Positions 740-40,374 of a DNA stretch of 40,374 nucleotides are shown here, in pieces; within the stretch, counting starts at the first letter, position 1, and each line of letters starts with the position of its first letter. The position numbers and the translations under genes are program-made. The notes below the pieces were generated by a model that was not told the origin of the DNA, ran no database searches, and saw only the letters and a program-made list of their open reading frames with translations. The stretch is from a virus: positions 1 to 40,374 of IMG/VR virus record IMGVR_UViG_3300049795_000021. One strand, 5' to 3'.

Positions 740-1150
740 ATGAGCGAACGCCGCCGGTACACCCGCAAGCAGAAGGTCAGCATCGTGATGGCGGCCGCGG
801 CCTCGTCGACCCTTGCGGCAGCCGAGCAGGCAGGCATCCCCGAGTCCACGGTCCGGTACTGGCTCGAAAAGCCCGAGTTTGCGAGTCTCCGCGACAAAAC
901 GCGCGAGGAAGCAGCCGAGGGCTGGAAGGTCGTGCTGCACCTTGCACAGGAGCGAATCGTCGAGCTGATCCCGAAGATGGACCCCGACGAGATCATGGTG
1001 CTGGCCGGCATTGCCACCGATAAGAGCCAGCTTCTGTCGGGTGGTCCGACCAGCCGTGAATCACGGATCACCGAGGGCTGGGACGATCACGAGAAGCTCG
1101 CGCTCCGCGATGCGATCAGGGCCGAACTCGTGAAGCGGGCAGAAGCATGA
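740..1150 (+). CDS. terS: Terminase small subunit (putative)
   Basis: 136 aa. Lies directly upstream of and translationally coupled (ATGA) to the large terminase. N-terminal HTH-like segment AAEQAGIPESTVRYWL. Confidence 0.6.
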   Translation: MSERRRYTRKQKVSIVMAAAASSTLAAAEQAGIPESTVRYWLEKPEFASLRDKTREEAAEGWKVVLHLAQERIVELIPKMDPDEIMVLAGIATDKSQLLSGGPTSRESRITEGWDDHEKLALRDAIRAELVKRAEA

Positions 1151-2430
1151 GCGTCGCGATCCTTGAGCACACTGCGACCGAGGATTTGCGCGCCTTCCTC
1201 GGGGACGAATACGCCGATCCAGACGATTTCGCGTCCCAGGAGCACGAGCAGTTCTATGACTCGCACCACGCCGAACTCGTGGCATCGGGTTGGATGGGCG
1301 CCGGCAAGAGCCGCGTGTTGACCGAGAAGGCATGGAACGTGGCACGGTCGTATCCCGGCGTGACGGTGGCCCTGTTCCGCAAGGCGCAGAACTCGATCGC
1401 CCACACCACGGAGCGGACGTTCGAGCGGGACGTGCTCGACCGTAGATATCTCGCCAAGCGCAACAAGACCGAGCACTTCTGGGAGCTGACGAACGGCAGC
1501 CGGATCTACTTCCTCGGCCTCGACCCCGACCCGATCACGGGCGTTCCGTCGAAGGTCGGCTCGATGGACCTCGGCTGGGCCGGCGTCGACGAGGCGGTGG
1601 AGCTGACCGAGGAAGACTGGATCATGCTCCTCGGCCGGCTTCGGGATCCGCGGATGCCATGGCACCAGTTGGCCGCTGCGACCAACCCCGGACCGCCAAA
1701 GCACTGGCTTCGGATGCGGATGCTGGCCTCGCAGGACCGCCTGATGCTCGCGATCCGGGCCAACAAGTTCCTGACCCCCGAGTACGTGGCGATGCTGGCC
1801 AACCTGCCGGACACCGCCGCAGGGCGGAGACTCGGCAGAGGTGAATGGGCCGCCGCCGAAGGGGTCATCTGGACGCTGCCCGATACCCAGGTCCGCGACG
1901 AAGCGGGGCCGTGGAAGACGGTAGAGGCGGGGCTGGACTGGGGCTTCGTCCACGCCTTCGCCTGCGAGGTGCTGGGGCTGTCAGGGTCCGGTCGGCTGGC
2001 CGTGATCGACGAGGTCTGGGAACAGGGTCTGACCATCGATCAGATCATCCCCGTCCTCGAAGTCGTCCGCCACAAGCACGGCATCACCCGCTTTTGGGCC
2101 GACCCCTCGGAGCCCGGCTACATCCTCCAATGCCAGCGCGCGGGACTGCCCGTTGAGCCAGCCCACAACGCCGTATCGCCAGGCATCGACGCCGTGTCCA
2201 CGGCCATCGCCCGGGGGATGACGGTCGGCCCGGACTGTCGCGGCCTGCTCGGCGAGCTACCGGGCTACACGTGGGCGCCGAACCGGGCGGGCGGCTTCCA
2301 TGAGCGACCGATCGAGATCAACGACGACGCCTGCGACGCCCTCCGCTACGGCGTCGTGGGGATCACCCGAGCCTTGGAGGACAACCCGTGGGCGGCGCTG
2401 GCCGGTCAGCGGGTCGGAGGCGTGGCGTGA
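1147..2430 (+). CDS. terL: Terminase large subunit
   Basis: 427 aa. Walker A GWMGAGKS, Walker B LGWAGVDEA and coupling motif ATNP. Nuclease-domain acidic motifs GLDWGF, FWADPSEPG and NDDACDALRYG. Confidence 0.9.
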   Translation: MSVAILEHTATEDLRAFLGDEYADPDDFASQEHEQFYDSHHAELVASGWMGAGKSRVLTEKAWNVARSYPGVTVALFRKAQNSIAHTTERTFERDVLDRRYLAKRNKTEHFWELTNGSRIYFLGLDPDPITGVPSKVGSMDLGWAGVDEAVELTEEDWIMLLGRLRDPRMPWHQLAAATNPGPPKHWLRMRMLASQDRLMLAIRANKFLTPEYVAMLANLPDTAAGRRLGRGEWAAAEGVIWTLPDTQVRDEAGPWKTVEAGLDWGFVHAFACEVLGLSGSGRLAVIDEVWEQGLTIDQIIPVLEVVRHKHGITRFWADPSEPGYILQCQRAGLPVEPAHNAVSPGIDAVSTAIARGMTVGPDCRGLLGELPGYTWAPNRAGGFHERPIEINDDACDALRYGVVGITRALEDNPWAALAGQRVGGVA

Positions 2431-2708
2431 GTCACGTAGGCGAACATGTTCGGATCGTCAACGGTCCACAACTGGATGCGATGGAAGTGGACGCGATCTT
2501 CGCCGACCCGCCAATGGTGGCCCGACAGCCAACCGCGTCGAGTACGCCACCACCGCGCGGGTTCGTCATTGCACATCGCCGGTACGACTTGCTTGGCCGC
2601 CTCCGCATCGGTGAACAGGCCGTCGATGAATGTCTCAACGTTAGGCGATCCATCATCCAGCCATCGCGGTTCGTTGCGCGCCTCCGTCAGCGCCAGCCAT
2701 ATGTCCAT
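2406..2708 (-). CDS. Hypothetical Trp-rich protein. Downstream gene of the reverse-strand two-gene cassette.
   Basis: 100 aa. Its ATG (2708) abuts the stop of the upstream minus-strand gene (2709). The composition is not the R/A/G-rich kind seen in antisense artefact ORFs. The 3' end overlaps the terL stop convergently by 25 nt. Confidence 0.55.
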   Translation of the reverse strand: MDIWLALTEARNEPRWLDDGSPNVETFIDGLFTDAEAAKQVVPAMCNDEPARWWRTRRGWLSGHHWRVGEDRVHFHRIQLWTVDDPNMFAYVTHATPPTR

Positions 2709-2930
2709 CTACTTCCCCTTCTTCGGAGCGGGAGTGAACGGGCGGGAGTTGAACGGCGGACCAGTCGGACGGGCGAATATACCCAGTTCGTTTACCTCGA
2801 TCCGGCCCCCACTGACGCTATGTCCAGCAGGGGTCCATTGGCCAATGATGTGGCCATTCGCCGTGACGATCGTCAGCTTCGTGAGGGAGGCGTAGCGACG
2901 CCTGAACTTGGAACTCGGCATCTCATCCAT
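2709..2930 (-). CDS. Small protein with a Phd/YefM-like antitoxin N-terminal pattern (tentative)
   Basis: 73 aa from the ATG at 2930. Alternative starts are GTG 2936 and ATG 2921. The segment FRRRYASLTKLTIVTANGHIIGQW resembles the strand-helix-strand N-terminus of Phd/YefM antitoxins. Lys-rich tail PAPKKGK. A -10-like TACAAT lies 7 nt upstream of the ATG. Confidence 0.5.
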   Translation of the reverse strand: MDEMPSSKFRRRYASLTKLTIVTANGHIIGQWTPAGHSVSGGRIEVNELGIFARPTGPPFNSRPFTPAPKKGK

Positions 2931-2937
2931 GCACACG

Positions 2938-2947
2938 ATTGTACCAG
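2938..2947 (-). promoter_or_regulatory. Extended -10-like promoter element (CTGGTACAAT on the minus strand) for the reverse cassette. Predicts a leaderless transcript.
   Basis: The minus strand reads cTGgTACAAT-cgtgtgc-ATG. TACAAT fits TANNNT with a TGn extension. The 7-nt gap puts the transcription start at or near the A of ATG 2930. Confidence 0.4.
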
Positions 2948-2969
2948 CGCGTACAGCGGTGTACCAGCG
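2941..2969. repeat. Three direct GTAC(C)AGCG repeats phased at exactly 10 bp. Operator-like.
   Basis: GTACCAGCGC / GTACAGCGGT / GTACCAGCGT begin at 2941, 2951 and 2961. They lie in the 32-38 bp divergent gap between the reverse cassette and the + strand gene at 2969. Confidence 0.6.
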
Positions 2970-3118
2970 TGACCAACGCGATCACCCGCTACGCCGAAGC
3001 CGCCTACGCCTTGCTCGTGGCCGGCGCGGCGATGCTCTGGCCGCCGCTCGCCCTCGTCGTCGCGGCGGGCTACCTCGTGACCCTCGCGGTCATCGCTGAT
3101 CGGAGGACGCCGCCGTGA
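2969..3118 (+). CDS. Small hydrophobic (2-TM) protein
   Basis: GTG start. The 49-aa product is VTNAITRYAEAAYALLVAGAAMLWPPLALVVAAGYLVTLAVIADRRTPP. It fills the gap before the portal gene. Confidence 0.45.
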   Translation: MTNAITRYAEAAYALLVAGAAMLWPPLALVVAAGYLVTLAVIADRRTPP

Positions 3119-3197
3119 GCTACTTCCCTCGACGCACGAGATCCGGTGAGTGCGTCGGAGGAGAGGTCCGAACCGGACGGACGTTGGGAGGGATCGT

Positions 3198-5675
3198 ATG
3201 AGCATCGCGATCCCTCCCAAGCTCGCCGCGAAGGCCGGCCCCATCGGTCCCGGTAGCGGGCCGCTCCTGACTGAGTTCCCGCTGTCCGCCTACGCCAAGC
3301 CCAGCGCCCAGAAGAAGATGCAGAAGGCGTGGGCGCTGTCGTTCGAGGTGCCGTGGATCGCTGCAGCGGAGGATGCGATCACCGAACGGTTCGCGGGGGT
3401 CGAGTGGCACCTCGAAGACGAGAACGACGACGCCATCGACGACGCCTATCCGAACCAGGATGCGCAACTGGCGCGGACGCTAATCGAGAAGCCCGCGGCC
3501 AACCTGCCGGTGGGCGCGGCGTTCTACCGCTCCGACCTGTGGGCGCTCACGGCCCGGGCGATGGGCATCTGCGGCTCGTCGTTCATCTTCCTCGACCAGC
3601 CGGAACGGGTCGCCCGGACGCCGGCCGCGATGCTTCCGATCGCACCGTGGCGGATGAGCCCGAATGAGGACTCGCAGGGCAACCTCCTGACCTGGCAGAT
3701 CGACAAGACGCAGACGAGCCCCGGCATCGAAGTCTCGCTAGAGCAGATCCTCCATTACAAGCTCCGTCCCAACTTCGCCGGCCACTTCGGGGTCGGGCTC
3801 GTCGAAAGCGCGCTGCGCAAGGCCCAGATCACGACGGGCCTCGACGACCACATCGGGCTCGTGCTGTCCGGTGGCGGACGCTTGTCGGGCATCCTCTCGC
3901 CGAAGACCGGCATCGTTGGCGGAGATGAGATCCTCCAGATGGAGCGCGACTGGCGGACGATTGTCGAGCAGAGCGATGCCGCCAAGCGGTTGCAGCTCGT
4001 GCGGGCGCCGATCCAGTTCGACCGGACCACGCTCACGCCCGACGAGCTGAAGATCCGCGATCTCATGGTCGGCTCGCGGGACGACCTGCTGGCGCTGTGG
4101 GGCGTTCCGCTGTCGATCATTGGCGGCTCGACTCCCGCAGGGCTGAACTCAGGTGACACCCGCAAGTACGACGAGGCGGCGATCTGGCAGGGGCCGATCC
4201 ACCACCGACTCAACGTTTTCCGCGAGATCACGCAGTACCAGCTTCTCGACCGCTGGCGCGACCTCGGTGTCACGATCGAGCTGGAGATCGACGAACCGGA
4301 GTTTGACGACGACTCGCCGCGCTACGACCTCCTCGGCAAGTCCGTCAACGTTGCCCTGACGGACGATGAGCGTCGAGCACTGATCGGCAAGGAACCCCTG
4401 CCGAACGGCCTCGGGCTGATGGTCCGGCTGCCGGCAACGATCGTCGAGTCGTTCGCCGTGCCGTCGGTCGACGAAACCCCGTCGATCACCACGACGGTCC
4501 TCGGTCGGGCGGCGCAGCAGCAGCTCACGTCGGGCGATTCGGCGATGCTCGCGGCCGGCGAGACGAAAGCTGCCCTCCATCCCCGCGTCCAGCCGTTGCA
4601 CCAGGCGCTCATCCGCATCCGCAACCACATGGCATCGAAGGTCACCCCGCGGCTGCAGTCGTCCGTGGCGCAAGTGCTCACCGACCAGCGCCACGACATC
4701 GCCGCCCGACTCCGGGAGCACGCGGATCACGTCACGAAGAACCCCCGCGACACGAGCACATGGTTCGACAAAGGCTGGGACGCCAAGCTCCACAAGGCGT
4801 TGGTGCCGCACCTCACGGTCATGGCCGAGGCGGTCGTGGCGCAGGTTCACGACGTTCTGCCGGCCAAGCCGCACAAGGCCGGTCCTGTAGGGGCGGTCGA
4901 GCGGACCCTCAATCGTGGCGCGGCTCGGGTGACCGGGATCAACGAGACGACACGGGCGAAGATCCAGGAGGCCATCATCCGCGGGCTGGAGGACGGGTTG
5001 TCAGTTCTCGACGTGGCGGACCTGATCGAGGAATCGGGGACGGTCGGCGGTCTGGAGATGGGCGCGCTGTTCGACGAGTACCGCGCCGAGATGATCGCCC
5101 GGACCGAGCTGATGGACGCCTACAACGGCGCGGCCATCGGCAGCTACTCCGACGCCGGGATCACGCAGGTCGAGGCGATCGACGGCGACGGGGATGAGGA
5201 GTGCGCCGCGCGCGATGGGCAGACGTTCGGCATCGACGAGGCGGACGCCATCGAAGATCACCCGAACGGAACCTTGGATTGGGTGCCCGTGATCGGGGAG
5301 GAGGTCGCTATCGAAGGCAAGGCGGCCGTATCTGCACCCGTTCCCGTCACCACGCCCCAGAACTTCAACTTCAACTTCCCGGAGGGCATGGTCCGCGTCG
5401 AGCACCACGCCGGCGATGTCCACGTGGCCGCAGCGGAACCACAGATCATCCCGCCGGCGCAGATCGATGTCCACGTCCCCGACCAGCCGGCGCCGATCGT
5501 GAACACCGTGGTCAACGTTCCCGAAACGCCTGCGCCCATCGTCAACGTGGCCGGCGACACGCACATCGTCAACGTCCCGGAACCGTCCGTGACGGTGGTC
5601 GACGTCAAGCCAACCCGCAAGGTCATCGACCGCGATCGGACGGGCACGATCACCGGCATTCACGAGGAGAACTGA
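3198..5675 (+). CDS. Portal protein fused to a MuF / SPP1 gp7-like minor head protein domain
   Basis: ATG 3198 is preceded by GGGAGGG. 825 aa. Located downstream of terL. The C-terminal third carries MuF-like motifs (EMIARTELMDAYNGAAIG, DEECAARDGQTF, HPNGTLDW). A Pro/Val-rich repeat tail follows (VPDQPAPIVN, VPETPAPIVN, VPEPSVTVV). Confidence 0.75.
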   Translation: MSIAIPPKLAAKAGPIGPGSGPLLTEFPLSAYAKPSAQKKMQKAWALSFEVPWIAAAEDAITERFAGVEWHLEDENDDAIDDAYPNQDAQLARTLIEKPAANLPVGAAFYRSDLWALTARAMGICGSSFIFLDQPERVARTPAAMLPIAPWRMSPNEDSQGNLLTWQIDKTQTSPGIEVSLEQILHYKLRPNFAGHFGVGLVESALRKAQITTGLDDHIGLVLSGGGRLSGILSPKTGIVGGDEILQMERDWRTIVEQSDAAKRLQLVRAPIQFDRTTLTPDELKIRDLMVGSRDDLLALWGVPLSIIGGSTPAGLNSGDTRKYDEAAIWQGPIHHRLNVFREITQYQLLDRWRDLGVTIELEIDEPEFDDDSPRYDLLGKSVNVALTDDERRALIGKEPLPNGLGLMVRLPATIVESFAVPSVDETPSITTTVLGRAAQQQLTSGDSAMLAAGETKAALHPRVQPLHQALIRIRNHMASKVTPRLQSSVAQVLTDQRHDIAARLREHADHVTKNPRDTSTWFDKGWDAKLHKALVPHLTVMAEAVVAQVHDVLPAKPHKAGPVGAVERTLNRGAARVTGINETTRAKIQEAIIRGLEDGLSVLDVADLIEESGTVGGLEMGALFDEYRAEMIARTELMDAYNGAAIGSYSDAGITQVEAIDGDGDEECAARDGQTFGIDEADAIEDHPNGTLDWVPVIGEEVAIEGKAAVSAPVPVTTPQNFNFNFPEGMVRVEHHAGDVHVAAAEPQIIPPAQIDVHVPDQPAPIVNTVVNVPETPAPIVNVAGDTHIVNVPEPSVTVVDVKPTRKVIDRDRTGTITGIHEEN

Positions 5676-6625
5676 TGGACGATCTGCTCATGGCTCCGCG
5701 TGGCGATGTCGAGGTTCGGACGACGTCGCTCGTACCCGATGGCGCCCGCCCCGGTCTCCGTGAGCTGTGCGACGACCCGCGGGCGTTCACTCGTCCGATC
5801 CTGATTCGCGGGATCTGGCGCGATGCCGCCTTCGGAATGCAGCGGCGGGTCTGGCGTGAGCGTGTCCAGACGCACAACCTCCAGCTGAACGTCGGGCGCG
5901 ACCAGCAGAAGCGCATCGCGATGTTCGGCGACTTCGGAACCGCCCTCAATACCCTGGCGGCAGTGGGCACGGCGTCGGCCCCGACGGCCACGACATGGAC
6001 GGGCGCCGCGTCGTCGTTCCCGACCGCGACATCCGCCGCAGGCAATGCCGGCCTGCAGGGCAAGCTCGCTTTCATCGCCAATGCGATCTCCGCAGCGGCG
6101 TTCACGAACCCGGTCGTCGGGGTCATCCTGTCGAACACGGCCACTGTCCTGACGGTCGACCAGTGGTACGCCGTCCCGGTCACCGGCGCGGCAGGCACGA
6201 CGCCGGCCACAAACAGCGCATGCCTGATCCTGCCCGGCGGTGGGCCGATGTGGTTCTGCGCCCTGTCCACGAGCACCGCCGCAGCTGTGGCGAGCGACGT
6301 CACCCGCACGGCCGACGGACTGTGGGCCGATGGCACCGGTGGTGGCACGACGACTGAGCAGACGGCCAACGGCCTCGCCCGCGCGTACGTCGGTCATGGC
6401 AGCGCGACGCCGCCGACGATCTCCGGCGCGAACAACTACACCTACGGCCACACGTGGACGTACACCGGCGCGTCGACGGTCACGATCGGCAAGGTCGTCC
6501 TGTTCAACTCGCTCGCCTTCGCCGGCACCATCCCGATGCTCGAGACGCTCCTCAACGCGAATGCCTCGGTCGCAGCCAACGGCGACACGATCGTCCTGTC
6601 GTCCTGGTCGGTCACGGTGAACTGA
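5675..6625 (+). CDS. Hypothetical Ala/Thr/Gly-rich protein. First gene of the portal-protease insertion.
   Basis: The ATG overlaps the portal stop (TGATG). 316 aa. No recognisable motif. The longer ORF starting at 5201 overlaps the portal gene and is rejected. Confidence 0.6.
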   Translation: MDDLLMAPRGDVEVRTTSLVPDGARPGLRELCDDPRAFTRPILIRGIWRDAAFGMQRRVWRERVQTHNLQLNVGRDQQKRIAMFGDFGTALNTLAAVGTASAPTATTWTGAASSFPTATSAAGNAGLQGKLAFIANAISAAAFTNPVVGVILSNTATVLTVDQWYAVPVTGAAGTTPATNSACLILPGGGPMWFCALSTSTAAAVASDVTRTADGLWADGTGGGTTTEQTANGLARAYVGHGSATPPTISGANNYTYGHTWTYTGASTVTIGKVVLFNSLAFAGTIPMLETLLNANASVAANGDTIVLSSWSVTVN

Positions 6626-6627
6626 CG

Positions 6628-7089
6628 ATGGCTGCTGTCTTCACCGTCAACTCGGGCAAGGTCGCCGCTGCGTCGGCGGCGCTGAAGGTGGCCGTCCAGC
6701 TTGCCTCCACCGCCAACAAGACCTGCAAGATCATCGCGGTGGATTTCACCTTCGACGGGACGGATGCGACGAAGACGCCGATCCTCTGCGAGATGGTTCG
6801 CGAAACGGGCGTAAGTGCAACCGGCGGCACGGCCCCGACCCCGGTTCTGGCCGGCGGCGATGCGTCCGTCACCAGCGCGATGACCGCTCGGATCAACGAC
6901 ACCGCAGATGGCTCGGGGCCAACGGTGATCTGCGGCTGGCTTGTCTCGCCCACGTCGGGCTTCTCCTACCAGTGGCCGCTCGGGCGCGAGATCACCCTCA
7001 AGATCAGCGACTTCGTGGCGGCGCGGGTGACGACGGTGGCGGGGTCGGGTACGCCGAACTACGACGTCACCGTCTGGTACGAGGAGTGA
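6628..7089 (+). CDS. Hypothetical beta-rich protein
   Basis: ATG lies 2 nt after the upstream stop. 153 aa. High GC3. No recognised motif. Confidence 0.6.
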   Translation: MAAVFTVNSGKVAAASAALKVAVQLASTANKTCKIIAVDFTFDGTDATKTPILCEMVRETGVSATGGTAPTPVLAGGDASVTSAMTARINDTADGSGPTVICGWLVSPTSGFSYQWPLGREITLKISDFVAARVTTVAGSGTPNYDVTVWYEE

Positions 7090-13437: not shown

Positions 13438-14090
13438 TCGCCGCCATCATCCCGACTCGCTACCACCCGCCCGAGTTGGACGTGCTGCTTGATGTGCTGC
13501 GAGGCGACGGAGTGCAACCGATCGTCCTCGGATCGGGGTTGTTCGATCACCAGATCTACCGGATGTGGAACGCGGGCAGCGACGCAACTAGCGCACGGAC
13601 CGTCGCCATCCTCAACGATGACATCACGCTCCTGCCCGGCTCGCTTCCGCTCATGGAGCGCATCTTGTGGTCGAACCCTCCGCCATTCGGTTGGGTCGCA
13701 CCCGAATGGCCGCAATTGGCGGTCGTCTACCCCGACATGACGGCCGAGTGGAGCCTGCCGGCGGAGCCCATGGTTCAGCGCACGACGGGGACGTGGGGGG
13801 GCGGCGGGATGACCGGCTTCTGCTTCATGTTCCGGACCGACCTCCTGCTTCCGCGCTTCGACGAGGGCTACCACTGGTGGTACGGCGACGACGCCTTCGA
13901 GTTGGGCGTCAGGGATGCCGGCTACGGCGTCGGGCGGGTCGTCGGGGTTCCGGTGCGTCACGAGCCGAACGGAACGGCCTCCCGTCATTGGGATGAGCTA
14001 CAACCGCTGATCGAGCAGGATCGCGCGCGCTGGGACGCCTCGTGGAACGCTCGCCATGCCGCTATCGCGCACCGGGAGCGGGGCGAATGA
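13434..14090 (+). CDS. Glycosyltransferase family 2-like (GT-A fold)
   Basis: GTGA overlap start. 218 aa. N-terminal IAAIIPTRY, VAILNDDI (DxD-like), and GGGMTGFCFMFR plus WWYGDDAFE, typical of GT2. Confidence 0.6.
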   Translation: MIAAIIPTRYHPPELDVLLDVLRGDGVQPIVLGSGLFDHQIYRMWNAGSDATSARTVAILNDDITLLPGSLPLMERILWSNPPPFGWVAPEWPQLAVVYPDMTAEWSLPAEPMVQRTTGTWGGGGMTGFCFMFRTDLLLPRFDEGYHWWYGDDAFELGVRDAGYGVGRVVGVPVRHEPNGTASRHWDELQPLIEQDRARWDASWNARHAAIAHRERGE

Positions 14091-15301
14091 CGCGGCTGCT
14101 GTTCCTCGGCGACCTGGCACGCACCGGGTTCGGGACGGTGACGATGGATCTCGGGCAGGCGTTGCTCGACCTCGGCATCGACGTCCGCTTCTGCTCGCTG
14201 TCCGAGACGCCGGGGGAGTTGCCGGAGCCGTTCGCCTCGCGGACGGCCCTGCTCGGCTCGCCGGGCGGATGGCTGGACGAGACCAACCCCGAAACGGTCG
14301 GTCGCCTCGAAGGGATGTTCCTAGGTTCGCTGTTCGAAGACGGCTGGACACCCGACATCGGGCTCGTCACGGGCGACATCGGCTCGCTCAAGATCAGCCC
14401 GGTCCTGCAGTTCATCCCCGAGGGCTTCCCGGTCCTCCACTACGTGCCGATCGAGGGGATCGGGCTCCCGCCGTCATGGGCCGCTGTCTGGCGCAAGGTG
14501 CAGCCGGTCGCCATGAGCCAGTTCGGCGCGGATGAGATCGCTAAGGTGACCGGCCATCGTCCTCCGGTTGTCTATCACGGCGTCGATCCGCTGTTCCACC
14601 CGGCCTCGGTCGAGTCCCCGATCCGGATCGACGGCAAGCGTCTTCGGGCGCGCGAGGCGTGTCGCAGGTTCTTCGGCGGCGATCCCGACGACATCTGGCT
14701 TCTCCGGACGGACCGCCATATGCCGCGCAAGGCGTACGGCTCGCTCCTCCGCTCGATCGCGCCGGTCCTCAGAGGACACCCGAACGTCAAGCTGATCCTC
14801 CACTGCCGGACGATGGACGGCGGCGGGGACATGCGTGACGAAATCAGCAAGTACGGAGTCCTGTCCCGCCAGATCGTCATGACCGGCTTCATGGACCCGC
14901 CGTTGGGAGGGTTGCAGCGCGAGGCGCTGGCGGCGCTCTACAACGCGGCCGACATCTATGTCTCGGTGTCGGCCGAGGGCTTCGGGTTGACGATCGCCGA
15001 GGCGTTGGCCTGCGGCGTTCCAGCGGTGGGAATGGACTACTCGTCGGTGCCCGAGGTCATCGGACCGGCCGGCGTGCTGGTTCCCATCGCGGGGCTCATC
15101 GACAACATCTACTCGTACTTCTGGGCGCGCGTTGACGAACCGAAATTCGGGCAGGCTGTCGAGGGCCTGATCCGCGATGTCGCCAAGCGGCGACTGCTCG
15201 GCGCGCAGGGCCCTCGTCACGTCGCCGCACACTTCTCTTGGCCGAATGCCGCCCGGCAGTTCGTCTCCCTCATTGAGCTTCGAAACGAGGTGGCGGCATG
15301 A
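14087..15301 (+). CDS. Glycosyltransferase family 4 / GT1-like (GT-B fold)
   Basis: ATGA overlap start. 404 aa. C-terminal E-x7-E signature region SVSAEGFGLTIAEALACGVPAVGMDYSSVPEVI. Confidence 0.8.
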   Translation: MTRLLFLGDLARTGFGTVTMDLGQALLDLGIDVRFCSLSETPGELPEPFASRTALLGSPGGWLDETNPETVGRLEGMFLGSLFEDGWTPDIGLVTGDIGSLKISPVLQFIPEGFPVLHYVPIEGIGLPPSWAAVWRKVQPVAMSQFGADEIAKVTGHRPPVVYHGVDPLFHPASVESPIRIDGKRLRAREACRRFFGGDPDDIWLLRTDRHMPRKAYGSLLRSIAPVLRGHPNVKLILHCRTMDGGGDMRDEISKYGVLSRQIVMTGFMDPPLGGLQREALAALYNAADIYVSVSAEGFGLTIAEALACGVPAVGMDYSSVPEVIGPAGVLVPIAGLIDNIYSYFWARVDEPKFGQAVEGLIRDVAKRRLLGAQGPRHVAAHFSWPNAARQFVSLIELRNEVAA

Positions 15302-25423: not shown

Positions 25424-25615
25424 ATGGGCGAAGCACCGAAGTCCCCACTCCGTCAGGTTCGCGTCGCTGCGGGCATGACCATCCGTGAACTGGAACGCCG
25501 AACCGGCATCAATCGAGGCCGGCTGTCGATCATCGAGCGAGGCGTCTCCCCGACCGATGACGAGGCCCGCCTGATCGCTGAAGCCATCCGCCGACCATCG
25601 GGCGAGGTCGCATGA
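25424..25615 (+). CDS. XRE-family (Cro/CI-like) helix-turn-helix transcriptional regulator
   Basis: 63 aa. LRQVRVAAGMTIRELERRTGINRGRLSIIERG is a classic HTH_3 pattern. First gene after promoter P1. Confidence 0.8.
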   Translation: MGEAPKSPLRQVRVAAGMTIRELERRTGINRGRLSIIERGVSPTDDEARLIAEAIRRPSGEVA

Positions 25616-35628: not shown

Positions 35629-35892
35629 TCACTCGCTGATCCAATCGCCAAGCTGGTCCTTCCGGCAGTCGGGGCAGAACCGGTGCCCGCTCTGGAACGC
35701 CGGCGTCTCGCCCAGATATTCGGGGTACCGATCGCCGGGACGGATGACGTTCGGACACCATCGACCGTGTTCGTGGCCAGCCGTCCCAAAGGGCTGATCT
35801 CCCGGATGGTCGTGGTAGCTCAGGTGGCAGTCGCAACGCCACTCCTTGCGCGCCGTGCGGATGATGGTCTGCGCGTCGTTGCTCGTCAGCAT
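35629..35892 (-). CDS. Cys/His-rich (zinc-binding-like) small protein on the reverse strand with its own promoter
   Basis: 87 aa: MLTSNDAQTIIRTARKEWRCDCHLSYHDHPGDQPFGTAGHEHGRWCPNVIRPGDRYPEYLGETPAFQSGHRFCPDCRKDQLGDWISE. Strong RBS AAGGAGAG and a consensus promoter lie upstream. The composition is unlike antisense artefacts. Confidence 0.7.
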   Translation of the reverse strand: MLTSNDAQTIIRTARKEWRCDCHLSYHDHPGDQPFGTAGHEHGRWCPNVIRPGDRYPEYLGETPAFQSGHRFCPDCRKDQLGDWISE

Positions 35893-37356: not shown

Positions 37357-37687
37357 GCAGCAATGACCCCTGATTCCCCGTTCCCACGCACGCTAGTACC
37401 TATACTGCCGGAATAGGTACCAGTGACCGGGGTTGAGCGTGGGCGTGCGTGATTCTAGGCTGATTCGTGAGGGCATCTGTGCCACGTTAGGACAGGTTGT
37501 GCCAATTTTTGATCCGACAGGCAGCACCTATAGCCAGCCGGCCAATCCGCAGATACGCTGTCACCCGTGGACAATCCCGTTGCCCGCTTCATGCCCCGTT
37601 GGGCCGTGGTCGTCTGGTGGATGACGAGCCACATCAGCAACCGCATCTGGCACTGGTTCCCCTATCGATTCCGGGACCGCTGGGCGC
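37357..37687. other. Largest non-coding region. Lower GC, with inverted and direct repeats. Candidate regulatory, origin or packaging region.
   Basis: No ORF here has genome-typical GC3. Inverted repeat GTACCTAT (37396-37403) / ATAGGTAC (37413-37420). TGATTC appears twice at 11-bp spacing (37450, 37461). There is a T5 run and CCCGTTG appears twice. Confidence 0.55.
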
Positions 37688-40235: not shown

Positions 40236-40352
40236 ATGCCAACCATTCCCGGAGGCGTCTGGCAGATCATCCTGTGGATCGTCCTCGCCCTGATCGCCGT
40301 GTTCCTGTTCCAAAATATCGTCCTGCCGCTCATCCACACGATCCAGAAGTAA
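40236..40352 (+). CDS. Small 1-TM peptide of the lysis cassette (holin/antiholin-accessory candidate)
   Basis: 38 aa: MPTIPGGVWQIILWIVLALIAVFLFQNIVLPLIHTIQK. AGGAGG RBS at 40223-40228. It was too short for the ORF track. Confidence 0.5.
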   Translation: MPTIPGGVWQIILWIVLALIAVFLFQNIVLPLIHTIQK

Positions 40353-40374
40353 AGGAAGGAAACTCCGATGGCCG
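40248..40374. repeat. Terminal direct repeat, right copy. Identical to 1-127.
   Basis: Same comparison as the left copy. The 127-nt length matches a common maximum assembler k-mer. Confidence 0.9.

Follow-up and report, generated by a model that had tools for sequence, protein, structure and literature searches.

Antitoxins of the Phd/YefM family pair with toxins of several families. In Escherichia coli, YefM represses by binding operator palindromes: a long palindrome (TCATTGTACAATGA) lies over the -10 element of yefM-yoeB and a second TGTACA is found 12 bp away (PMC1802561, PMC4803016). Residue R10 of YefM is essential for operator binding (PMC4803016). Here, we analysed two small reverse-strand genes, orf73 and orf100, lying between the large terminase gene (terL) and the portal gene of an uncultivated tailed phage, IMG/VR record IMGVR_UViG_3300049795_000021. 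The whole stretch of 40,374 nucleotides is called the window below. The initial annotation took the pair for a possible toxin-antitoxin-like or exclusion/defence module. We find that both genes are coding, that orf73 belongs to a family whose genomic slot and upstream boxes are conserved, that its C-terminal tail is modular and that the downstream gene, the cargo, is exchangeable. We therefore favour, with a probability of roughly 0.6, an interpretation in which orf73 encodes an antitoxin-shaped, autoregulated DNA-binding protein, from an undescribed tail-bearing family that resides beside terL and is coupled to swappable cargo.

orf73 and the boxes upstream of it

The orf73 product is basic (isoelectric point 11). 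Its N-terminal domain resembles DNA-binding domains and is joined to a conserved C-terminal tail by a disordered linker that varies in length and sequence. A search with the single sequence gave 4 homologues and a profile search gave at least 135 clusters of proteins from uncultivated high-GC phages, without names or Pfam domain and nearly all from metagenome assemblies. There was no match by tblastn among isolated phages and no informative one in Pfam (E <= 1), PHROGs, PADLOC or NCBIfam. The N-terminal domain spans about 34 residues across the family, with the consensus MDEMPSSEFRRRYAxLTKPTxVTVNGHxIGxWxP, and S6, R10, V22, G26, G30 and P34 are invariant in 119 sequences. An AlphaFold2 (AF2) model based on the alignment of these 119 sequences predicts a strand at residues 2-5, a helix at 6-15 and strands at 20-24 and 27-32, with a predicted local distance difference test score (pLDDT) of 90-93, followed by disorder. 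The best matches of this model in the PDB, as given by Foldseek, are almost all antitoxins of the Phd/YefM fold (VapB46-N, PfiA, 2odk, Phd, YefM and Mtb RelB), with probabilities up to 0.99 and target-normalised template-modelling (TM) scores up to 0.64; CBS domains are also among the matches. PfiA superposes on the N-terminal domain with a root-mean-square deviation of 1.3 Å over 36 columns, at 25% identity. The Phd/YefM-like N-terminus initially suggested for this protein finds some support in the predicted fold and in the best, though not significant, fold matches in the PDB, and fails as regards sequence membership in PF02604, to which orf73 does not belong. A PDB sequence-profile search with the family gave no match either.

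The minus strand upstream of orf73 reads CGCTGGTACAccgCTGTACgcgcTGGTACAATcgtgtgcATG and was initially described as a leaderless promoter with an extended -10 element. The TACAAT hexamer indeed stands 7 nt before the ATG, no Shine-Dalgarno sequence is found in these 7 nt, and among 14 diverged homologous loci 13 have a TANNNT hexamer that ends 6-8 nt upstream of the start codon. The homologues do not keep the extended TG. The comparison suggests that orf73 has a leaderless start.

Three boxes with a GTAC core, spaced by 10 bp, lie at -14/-24/-34 relative to the orf73 ATG. The pattern GTAC-N6-GTAC-N6-GTAC occurs once in the 40-kb window and in none of 100 shuffles, and another phased GTAC array was not found elsewhere in the window. 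The upstream regions of the 14 diverged loci contain 34 GTAC, against 1.6 expected, placed at -14, -24 and/or -34, and the proximal box reads TTGTACAAT or TGGTACAAT. Hence, the three phased repeats form a unique array, and their operator-like character, also proposed beforehand, is strengthened by the fixed position of the cores in homologous loci and by a core identical to that of the published YefM operator. At the sequence level this is the arrangement of the autoregulatory boxes in the Phd/YefM family, i.e. paired palindromes with a TGTACA core over the -10. The three boxes are thus a plausible operator. Together, fold and operator resemblance support, without proving it, the view of orf73 as a Phd/YefM-like autoregulator, and we infer from them that the protein binds DNA and represses its own expression. 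Since the distal box adjoins the GTG at 2969 of the membrane-protein gene, the divergent intergenic region has just 38 bp. We also considered the boxes as marks of the genome termini, which is excluded because the contig ends do not coincide with them.

A somewhat similar element is found at 37390-37425, in a lower-GC non-coding stretch of roughly 240 nt. It reads TAGTACCTATACT...ATAGGTACC, an inverted repeat of 8 bp whose GTAC cores stand 21 bp apart, the first core overlapping a hexamer, TATACT, that resembles a -10 element. A second promoter/operator of the same kind is conceivable here, although the element is not statistically distinguishable from chance.

Both minus-strand genes are coding, as previously annotated, given their homologues and their GC content by codon position (0.53/0.54/0.73 in orf73 and 0.64/0.50/0.73 in orf100). 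Their GC content at third codon positions (GC3, 0.73) is below that of terL and portal (0.87). The GC position pattern and the families of homologues exclude that they are shadows of a 194-residue plus-strand open reading frame (ORF) at 2388-2972; the latter is itself a shadow ORF, as indicated by its antisense GC pattern. The details of the arrangement agree with the initial annotation as well: the ATG of orf100 immediately follows the TAG of orf73, the 3' ends of orf100 and terL overlap convergently by 25 nt, and the orf100 product, called Trp-rich, has 7 W in 100 residues. An in-frame GTG at 2936 would extend orf73 to 75 residues; the homologues begin with MDEM. A crude gene call based on GC3 roughly agrees with the statement that the genome has only three such minus-strand genes. 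The third is probably an 87-residue Cys/His-rich ORF at 35629-35892 on the minus strand.

A C-terminal tail on unrelated N-terminal domains

The tail FNSRPFTP[AV]PK is present in 90 of the 122 sequences of the orf73 family, and most others have a shorter FRP[AV]PKP. Its codons vary synonymously, with Ser encoded by both TCN and AGY, which indicates selection on the peptide. A role at the DNA level, such as a tRNA 3' fragment or an attP core, was rejected on the same grounds and because the flanks form no T-stem. Four proteins (P0107, P0122, P0129 and P0130) end instead in (D)xLLRKINRG(R), which suggests a second, alternative effector peptide.

The identical tail is found on two further types of N-terminal domain, which we call types B and C, orf73 being of type A. 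Type B has a basic AxYMRxYRARKK motif and a coiled coil (ELEAEVxHLKxELAxRP), whereas type C, represented by locus L046, looks ribbon-helix-helix-like on inspection of its sequence. The arrays upstream of type B genes are made of GTAAC or GTAAG repeats, and those of type C of other repeats. The box arrays thus follow the type of N-terminal domain, which argues that this domain recognises the DNA sequence. P0019, in which the last 45 residues of a type B protein follow a type A N-terminal domain, is direct evidence of domain shuffling. No known function emerged when the type B proteins, the protein of type C and three of the cargo proteins were scanned against PHROGs and Pfam, and we found nothing relevant in the literature on the tail motif or on reverse genes between terminase and portal in actinophages.

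The tail gene adjoins terL wherever the flanking sequence is long enough to judge. The exact placement varies. Members of the orf73 family are lone and reversed between terL and portal in the L010/L030/L024 group and in L013/L035; they are reversed at the same place and followed by a gene, or by room for one, in the window, L004 and L059; and they diverge from the terminase genes in L001, L014 and L061. Type B genes are reversed between terL and portal in L015/L037, L016/L040, L038 and L041, and diverge from terS and terL in L017 and L064. In L055, L060, L062 and L063 they occupy the position of terS, and their tail codons overlap those of the TerL N-terminus in another frame. L012 has two tail genes: a lone type A gene at 6582-6962 (minus strand), reversed between terL and portal, and a type B-like gene on the main strand at 3980-4192, which overlaps an ORF with a Terminase_1-type N-terminal motif. 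In L038 (3190-3348) and L045 (817-978) the membrane-protein gene is on the far side, i.e. the cassette lies between it and the portal gene, so the insertion point of the cassette shifts by one gene.

The tail is near-invariant while the TerL and portal families beside it differ widely, which points to a conserved partner, probably a host protein. Leading ideas for this partnership are a contact with host RNA polymerase for late-gene control, a degron, or docking on the terminase. A scan with peptide patterns of the N-terminus and of the tail across 185,579 species-representative genomes gave one spurious internal match. The patterns are thus essentially absent from these genomes, and the tail-bearing phages are not common prophages.

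Exchangeable cargo and genomic context

Of the 17 unique tail sequences tabulated, 12 continue with AAGAAGGGGAAG, encoding KKGK, and a stop codon. Ten of these junctions are TAG-ATG; in L028 the TAG is followed after 3 nt by GTG, and L045 has TGA-GTG. A downstream ORF is present behind every one of the 12. Among type A members, about 30% end in (K)GK and the rest are predicted to be lone (about 65% have no KGK-type ending). The 10 unique cargo sequences behind the exact junction represent nine unrelated families of 27-111 residues, the ORF of L004 being doubtful (GC3 0.62). When the window is compared with L004, TerL is 89.5% identical and the 55 nt spanning tail and junction are 94.5% identical, and in place of the body of orf100 L004 has unrelated DNA of about 600 nt. 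Locus L027, of type A, and L046, of type C, have unrelated N-terminal domains and cargo proteins that are 81% identical. Cargo is exchangeable at this slot. The accessory nature of the second gene, which the initial annotation had anticipated, is clear from cargo being acquired independently and differing between close relatives.

The orf100 product is acidic, and its AF2 model has a beta-beta-alpha-beta-beta-beta topology (pLDDT 83.7). C46, H74 and H76 (the HFH motif) are invariant in its family and H64 is found in at least 90% of members, which suggests a metal site. It was previously said to match no recognised toxin family, and this remains true whether one looks at fold, PADLOC, NCBIfam, Pfam or the PDB. 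Foldseek found no fold match in the PDB (best E 0.026, TM 0.26), and the matches in BFVD are exclusively uncharacterised phage proteins. No match arose in Pfam, PADLOC, NCBIfam or a PDB sequence-profile search, PHROGs gave none that was informative, and tblastn against isolated phages returned chance-level matches only. We found 10 homologues, all remote. In L018 the homologue lies behind a variant junction (SQKGK) and abuts an orf73-like gene, with about 45% identity; the others examined are in co-directional arrays of small phage genes without an orf73-like neighbour.

The genome is that of a tailed phage (66% GC), with nearly all genes on the plus strand (Table 1). Positions 1-127 are identical to 40248-40374, and this 127-bp terminal overlap shows a circular assembly, probably a complete genome of about 40.25 kb. 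Among isolated phages no close relative was found, either by a near-DNA search of INPHARED with positions 2000-3400 or by tblastn of terL. No integrase was matched among the large plus-strand ORFs scanned, a scan that was not exhaustive, and no RNA family of Rfam matched in the whole window. We considered whether orf73 is the small terminase of this phage and rejected it: the gene is on the opposite strand and downstream of terL, and a separate TerS candidate is present. Further along the genome, a glycosyltransferase-like gene (14042-15301, plus strand; phrog_2170, E 5e-18) lies in the structural module between head and tail genes. At the late/early boundary, an ORF at 25424-25615 (plus strand) resembles, by inspection only, a XRE/Cro-type regulator with a helix-turn-helix (HTH), MTIRELERRTGINRGRLSIIERG.

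Table 1. Features of the terL-portal region, with positions in the window
Feature	Positions	Strand	Remarks
TerS-like HTH gene	740-1150	+	overlaps the terL start; weak TerS PHROG matches, E 0.005-0.04
terL, large terminase	1147-2430	+	tblastn to annotated terminases; L004 homologue has Terminase_3/6N
orf100	2406-2708	-	ATG at 2706-2708; 100 residues
Junction AAGAAGGGGAAG-TAG-ATG	2706-2723	-	KKGK codons double as a Shine-Dalgarno-like sequence, then stop and abutting cargo start
orf73	2709-2930	-	ATG at 2930, TAG at 2709-2711; 73 residues
Tail FNSRPFTPAPKKGK, orf73 residues 60-73	2712-2753	-	portable conserved peptide
orf73 N-terminal domain, residues 1-34, MDEMPSSKFRRRYASLTKLTIVTANGHIIGQWTP	2829-2930	-	predicted beta-alpha-beta-beta, Phd/YefM-like
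-10-like element TGgTACAAT	2938-2946	-	TACAAT at 2938-2943; 7 nt before the orf73 ATG
Three GTAC-core boxes	2941-2964	.	GGTACA / TGTACG / GGTACA on the minus strand; cores at 2941, 2951, 2961
Membrane-protein gene, 49 residues	2969-3118	+	GTG start; phrog_502 'membrane protein', E 2e-4; L004 homologue 70% identical
Portal	3198-5675	+	likely start ATG 3198 after GGGAGG; L004 homologue with PF04860 and equivalent start MSIAIPP

Competing explanations and known systems

We propose that orf73 encodes a small DNA-binding protein of the dimer type, that its N-terminal domain is Phd/YefM-like and that its leaderless mRNA would begin about 7 nt after the TACAAT -10. The protein would bind the three GTAC-core boxes at -14/-24/-34. 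As the proximal box overlaps the -10, binding might shut off its own promoter, in the way YefM does at TGTACA palindromes. The array, once bound, would also lie right where the divergent membrane-protein and portal genes begin. The disordered C-terminus, ending in FNSRPFTP[AV]PK, would be a portable effector tail that docks probably on one conserved partner, which is more likely to be a host protein than a phage protein. In this scheme orf100 would be exchangeable cargo and no cognate toxin, translationally coupled to orf73 via KKGK-stop-ATG and swapped in by recombination at this very junction. One might go further and speculate that FNSRPFTP[A/V]PK is an effector module grafted by recombination on at least three unrelated N-terminal domains and docking on one conserved machine, most plausibly the host RNA polymerase or another host hub. 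These proteins would then make a new superfamily of regulators of packaging or late operons in uncultivated high-GC soil phages, and KKGK-stop-ATG would be a hot spot of accessory-gene exchange. This larger claim is tentative, and we think it somewhat more likely to be wrong than right.

Several observations weigh against the proposed explanation. The Foldseek E-values (0.07-1) are not significant, as expected for a domain of 34 residues. PF02604 is not matched by orf73 and is matched weakly by 6 of the 119 relatives (best E 0.12). An hhalign comparison with the three sequences of YefM, Phd and RelJ gave a probability of 0.2%. In this non-significant alignment the invariant R10 of the family is in register with the essential R10 of YefM, which speaks for the proposal, and the position of YefM R31 is taken by V or A. 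None of the three boxes in the window has a perfect TGTACA, and their spacing is 10-11 bp, versus 12 bp in E. coli yefM. A scan with the sigma-70 consensus finds no -35 element, no full -35/-10 promoter and no terminator, which is why the leaderless promoter had to be deduced by comparison. An orf73-like gene recurs once together with an orf100-like gene, in L018, and some functional coupling of the two is thus possible. More generally, the evidence is computational throughout.

The most obvious alternative is a genuine type II toxin-antitoxin or abortive-infection module, where orf73 would act both as autorepressor and as labile antitoxin, its linker or C-terminus neutralising orf100 as a new toxin. 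The order of the genes with the antitoxin first, their abutment, the small products, the Phd/YefM-like fold with a YefM-like operator, the variety of toxin families with which Phd/YefM antitoxins pair, and the recurrence of the pair in L018 at about 45% identity are all as one would expect. Yet most members of the orf73 family are lone genes, and the tail is invariant whatever the cargo, even though cargo families are unrelated and interchangeable. The tail belongs to the C-terminal part, where antitoxins bind the toxin, and it is found on unrelated N-terminal domains. L027 and L046 share their cargo but have linkers without obvious similarity by eye, the homologues of orf100 in co-directional arrays have no orf73-like partner, and orf100 is unlike RelE, YoeB, Doc, ParE and VapC in structure or family. 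Type II pairs are conserved as units across genomes, whereas this one recurs only in L018, and we find no cognate toxin immediately downstream to be bound by the C-terminus of the antitoxin. The cognate toxin-antitoxin or defence module of the initial annotation is therefore improbable, since genes of the orf73 family are usually alone, cargo comes from at least nine unrelated families and orf100 matches no toxin. A classical moron, expressed from the prophage and providing the lysogen with exclusion or defence, would account for the reversed orientation inside the late region with its own -10 element, for a GC3 of 0.73 next to genes at 0.87 and for cargo differing between close relatives. But the contig is circular, the non-exhaustive scan of large plus-strand ORFs revealed no integrase, the peptide patterns are essentially absent from the 185,579 species-representative genomes, and neither a terminator nor a PADLOC match was found. 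Furthermore, the regulator gene resides in the slot as a conserved member and was not inserted there. We regard this explanation as very improbable.

The position beside the packaging genes suggests two other explanations. In Gram-positive phages, the genes for late activators lie immediately upstream of terS (PMC3753634, PMC3152322). By analogy, orf73 might regulate the late packaging/structural operon in the manner of RinA, ArpU or Ltr, with an N-terminal domain binding boxes at the head of the terminase or portal genes and a tail contacting the host RNA polymerase to activate or block late transcription, which would extend our preferred reading instead of opposing it. Tail genes adjoin terS, terL or portal in every judgeable locus, be they convergent, divergent or first in the operon, the tail is near-invariant across phages whose TerL proteins fall into at least five divergent types, as expected from a conserved host partner, and one phage (L012) can have two paralogues. 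On the other hand, the 38-bp intergenic region has no room for a plus-strand promoter, and the boxes would be downstream of one; the genome has no second phased GTAC array; by Pfam and PHROG orf73 is unrelated in sequence to RinA, ArpU and Ltr and belongs to none of these families; and binding of the tail to RNA polymerase is purely hypothetical. This role is unlikely on present evidence, but deserves consideration. An accessory of packaging, where the tail docks on TerL or portal, as the C-terminus does in small terminases, and the boxes form a DNA site that recruits or restrains the terminase, would explain the linkage to terL in every judgeable locus. It would also explain the co-directional type B genes in the terS position in L055, L060, L062 and L063, with tail codons overlapping the TerL N-terminus. 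The architecture of TerS, a DNA-binding domain, a coiled coil and a C-terminal tail, is similar too. However, the window already has an HTH TerS-like gene, as do L037 and L064 upstream of terL, judging from a reading of their sequences. In addition, orf73 is encoded on the other strand, the boxes are not at the ends of the contig, and a tail almost invariant next to widely differing TerL and portal proteins is unlikely at an interface between phage proteins. We thus give little credit to this explanation.

If orf73 is an antitoxin-shaped autoregulator, lytic-looking soil phages took over an antitoxin-type fold and a TGTACA-type operator to make a stand-alone regulator beside their packaging genes. 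More unusual is the near-invariant C-terminal peptide on three unrelated small N-terminal domains. The identity of its partner would show which host or phage machine is targeted, and would open a way to study gene regulation in a large phage group known solely from metagenomes. The Shine-Dalgarno-stop-start junction with its interchangeable small genes would be a compact natural cassette system and, as such, a source of uncharacterised host-interaction proteins, including orf100.

How does this locus compare with described systems? Like the morons of lambda (bor/lom) and HK97 (gp15), orf100 is an accessory gene of the late region, of atypical composition, probably transcribed independently and variable between relatives. 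Unlike for morons, we found no terminator and no evidence of lysogeny, a conserved regulator gene resides at the head of the slot, and cargo is exchanged at a fixed Shine-Dalgarno-stop-start junction. RinA, ArpU and LtrC (PMC3753634) are also small phage DNA-binding proteins with several unrelated folds at one conserved position of the packaging module. They show no sequence relationship with the tail proteins, whose genes are often reversed and whose common C-terminal peptide is undescribed for Ltr families. With small terminases the tail proteins share the domain logic and, for type B in some relatives, the terS position, but the window has a separate HTH TerS candidate, and orf73 is antisense to the packaging operon and has a predicted Phd-like fold. 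The closest resemblance is with YefM and Phd (PF02604): a small protein that starts with a predicted beta-alpha-beta-beta fold of the DNA-binding type and ends in a disordered region, an S-x-x-F/A-R10 motif, and a gene that comes first in a compact bicistron. As in E. coli yefM-yoeB and P1 phd-doc, palindromic boxes with a GTAC core are about one helical turn apart and the proximal one lies over the -10. The differences are nevertheless considerable. There is no significant match to PF02604, the helix region is about 7 residues shorter, the boxes are 10-11 bp apart instead of 12 bp and there is no cognate toxin. The C-terminus is a peptide common to unrelated DNA-binding domains, not a toxin-specific helix, and genes of the orf73 family are lone in most genomes and, in phages, always beside terL. 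Caution is thus in order, as not every pair of a Phd-like protein and a small ORF is a toxin-antitoxin system.

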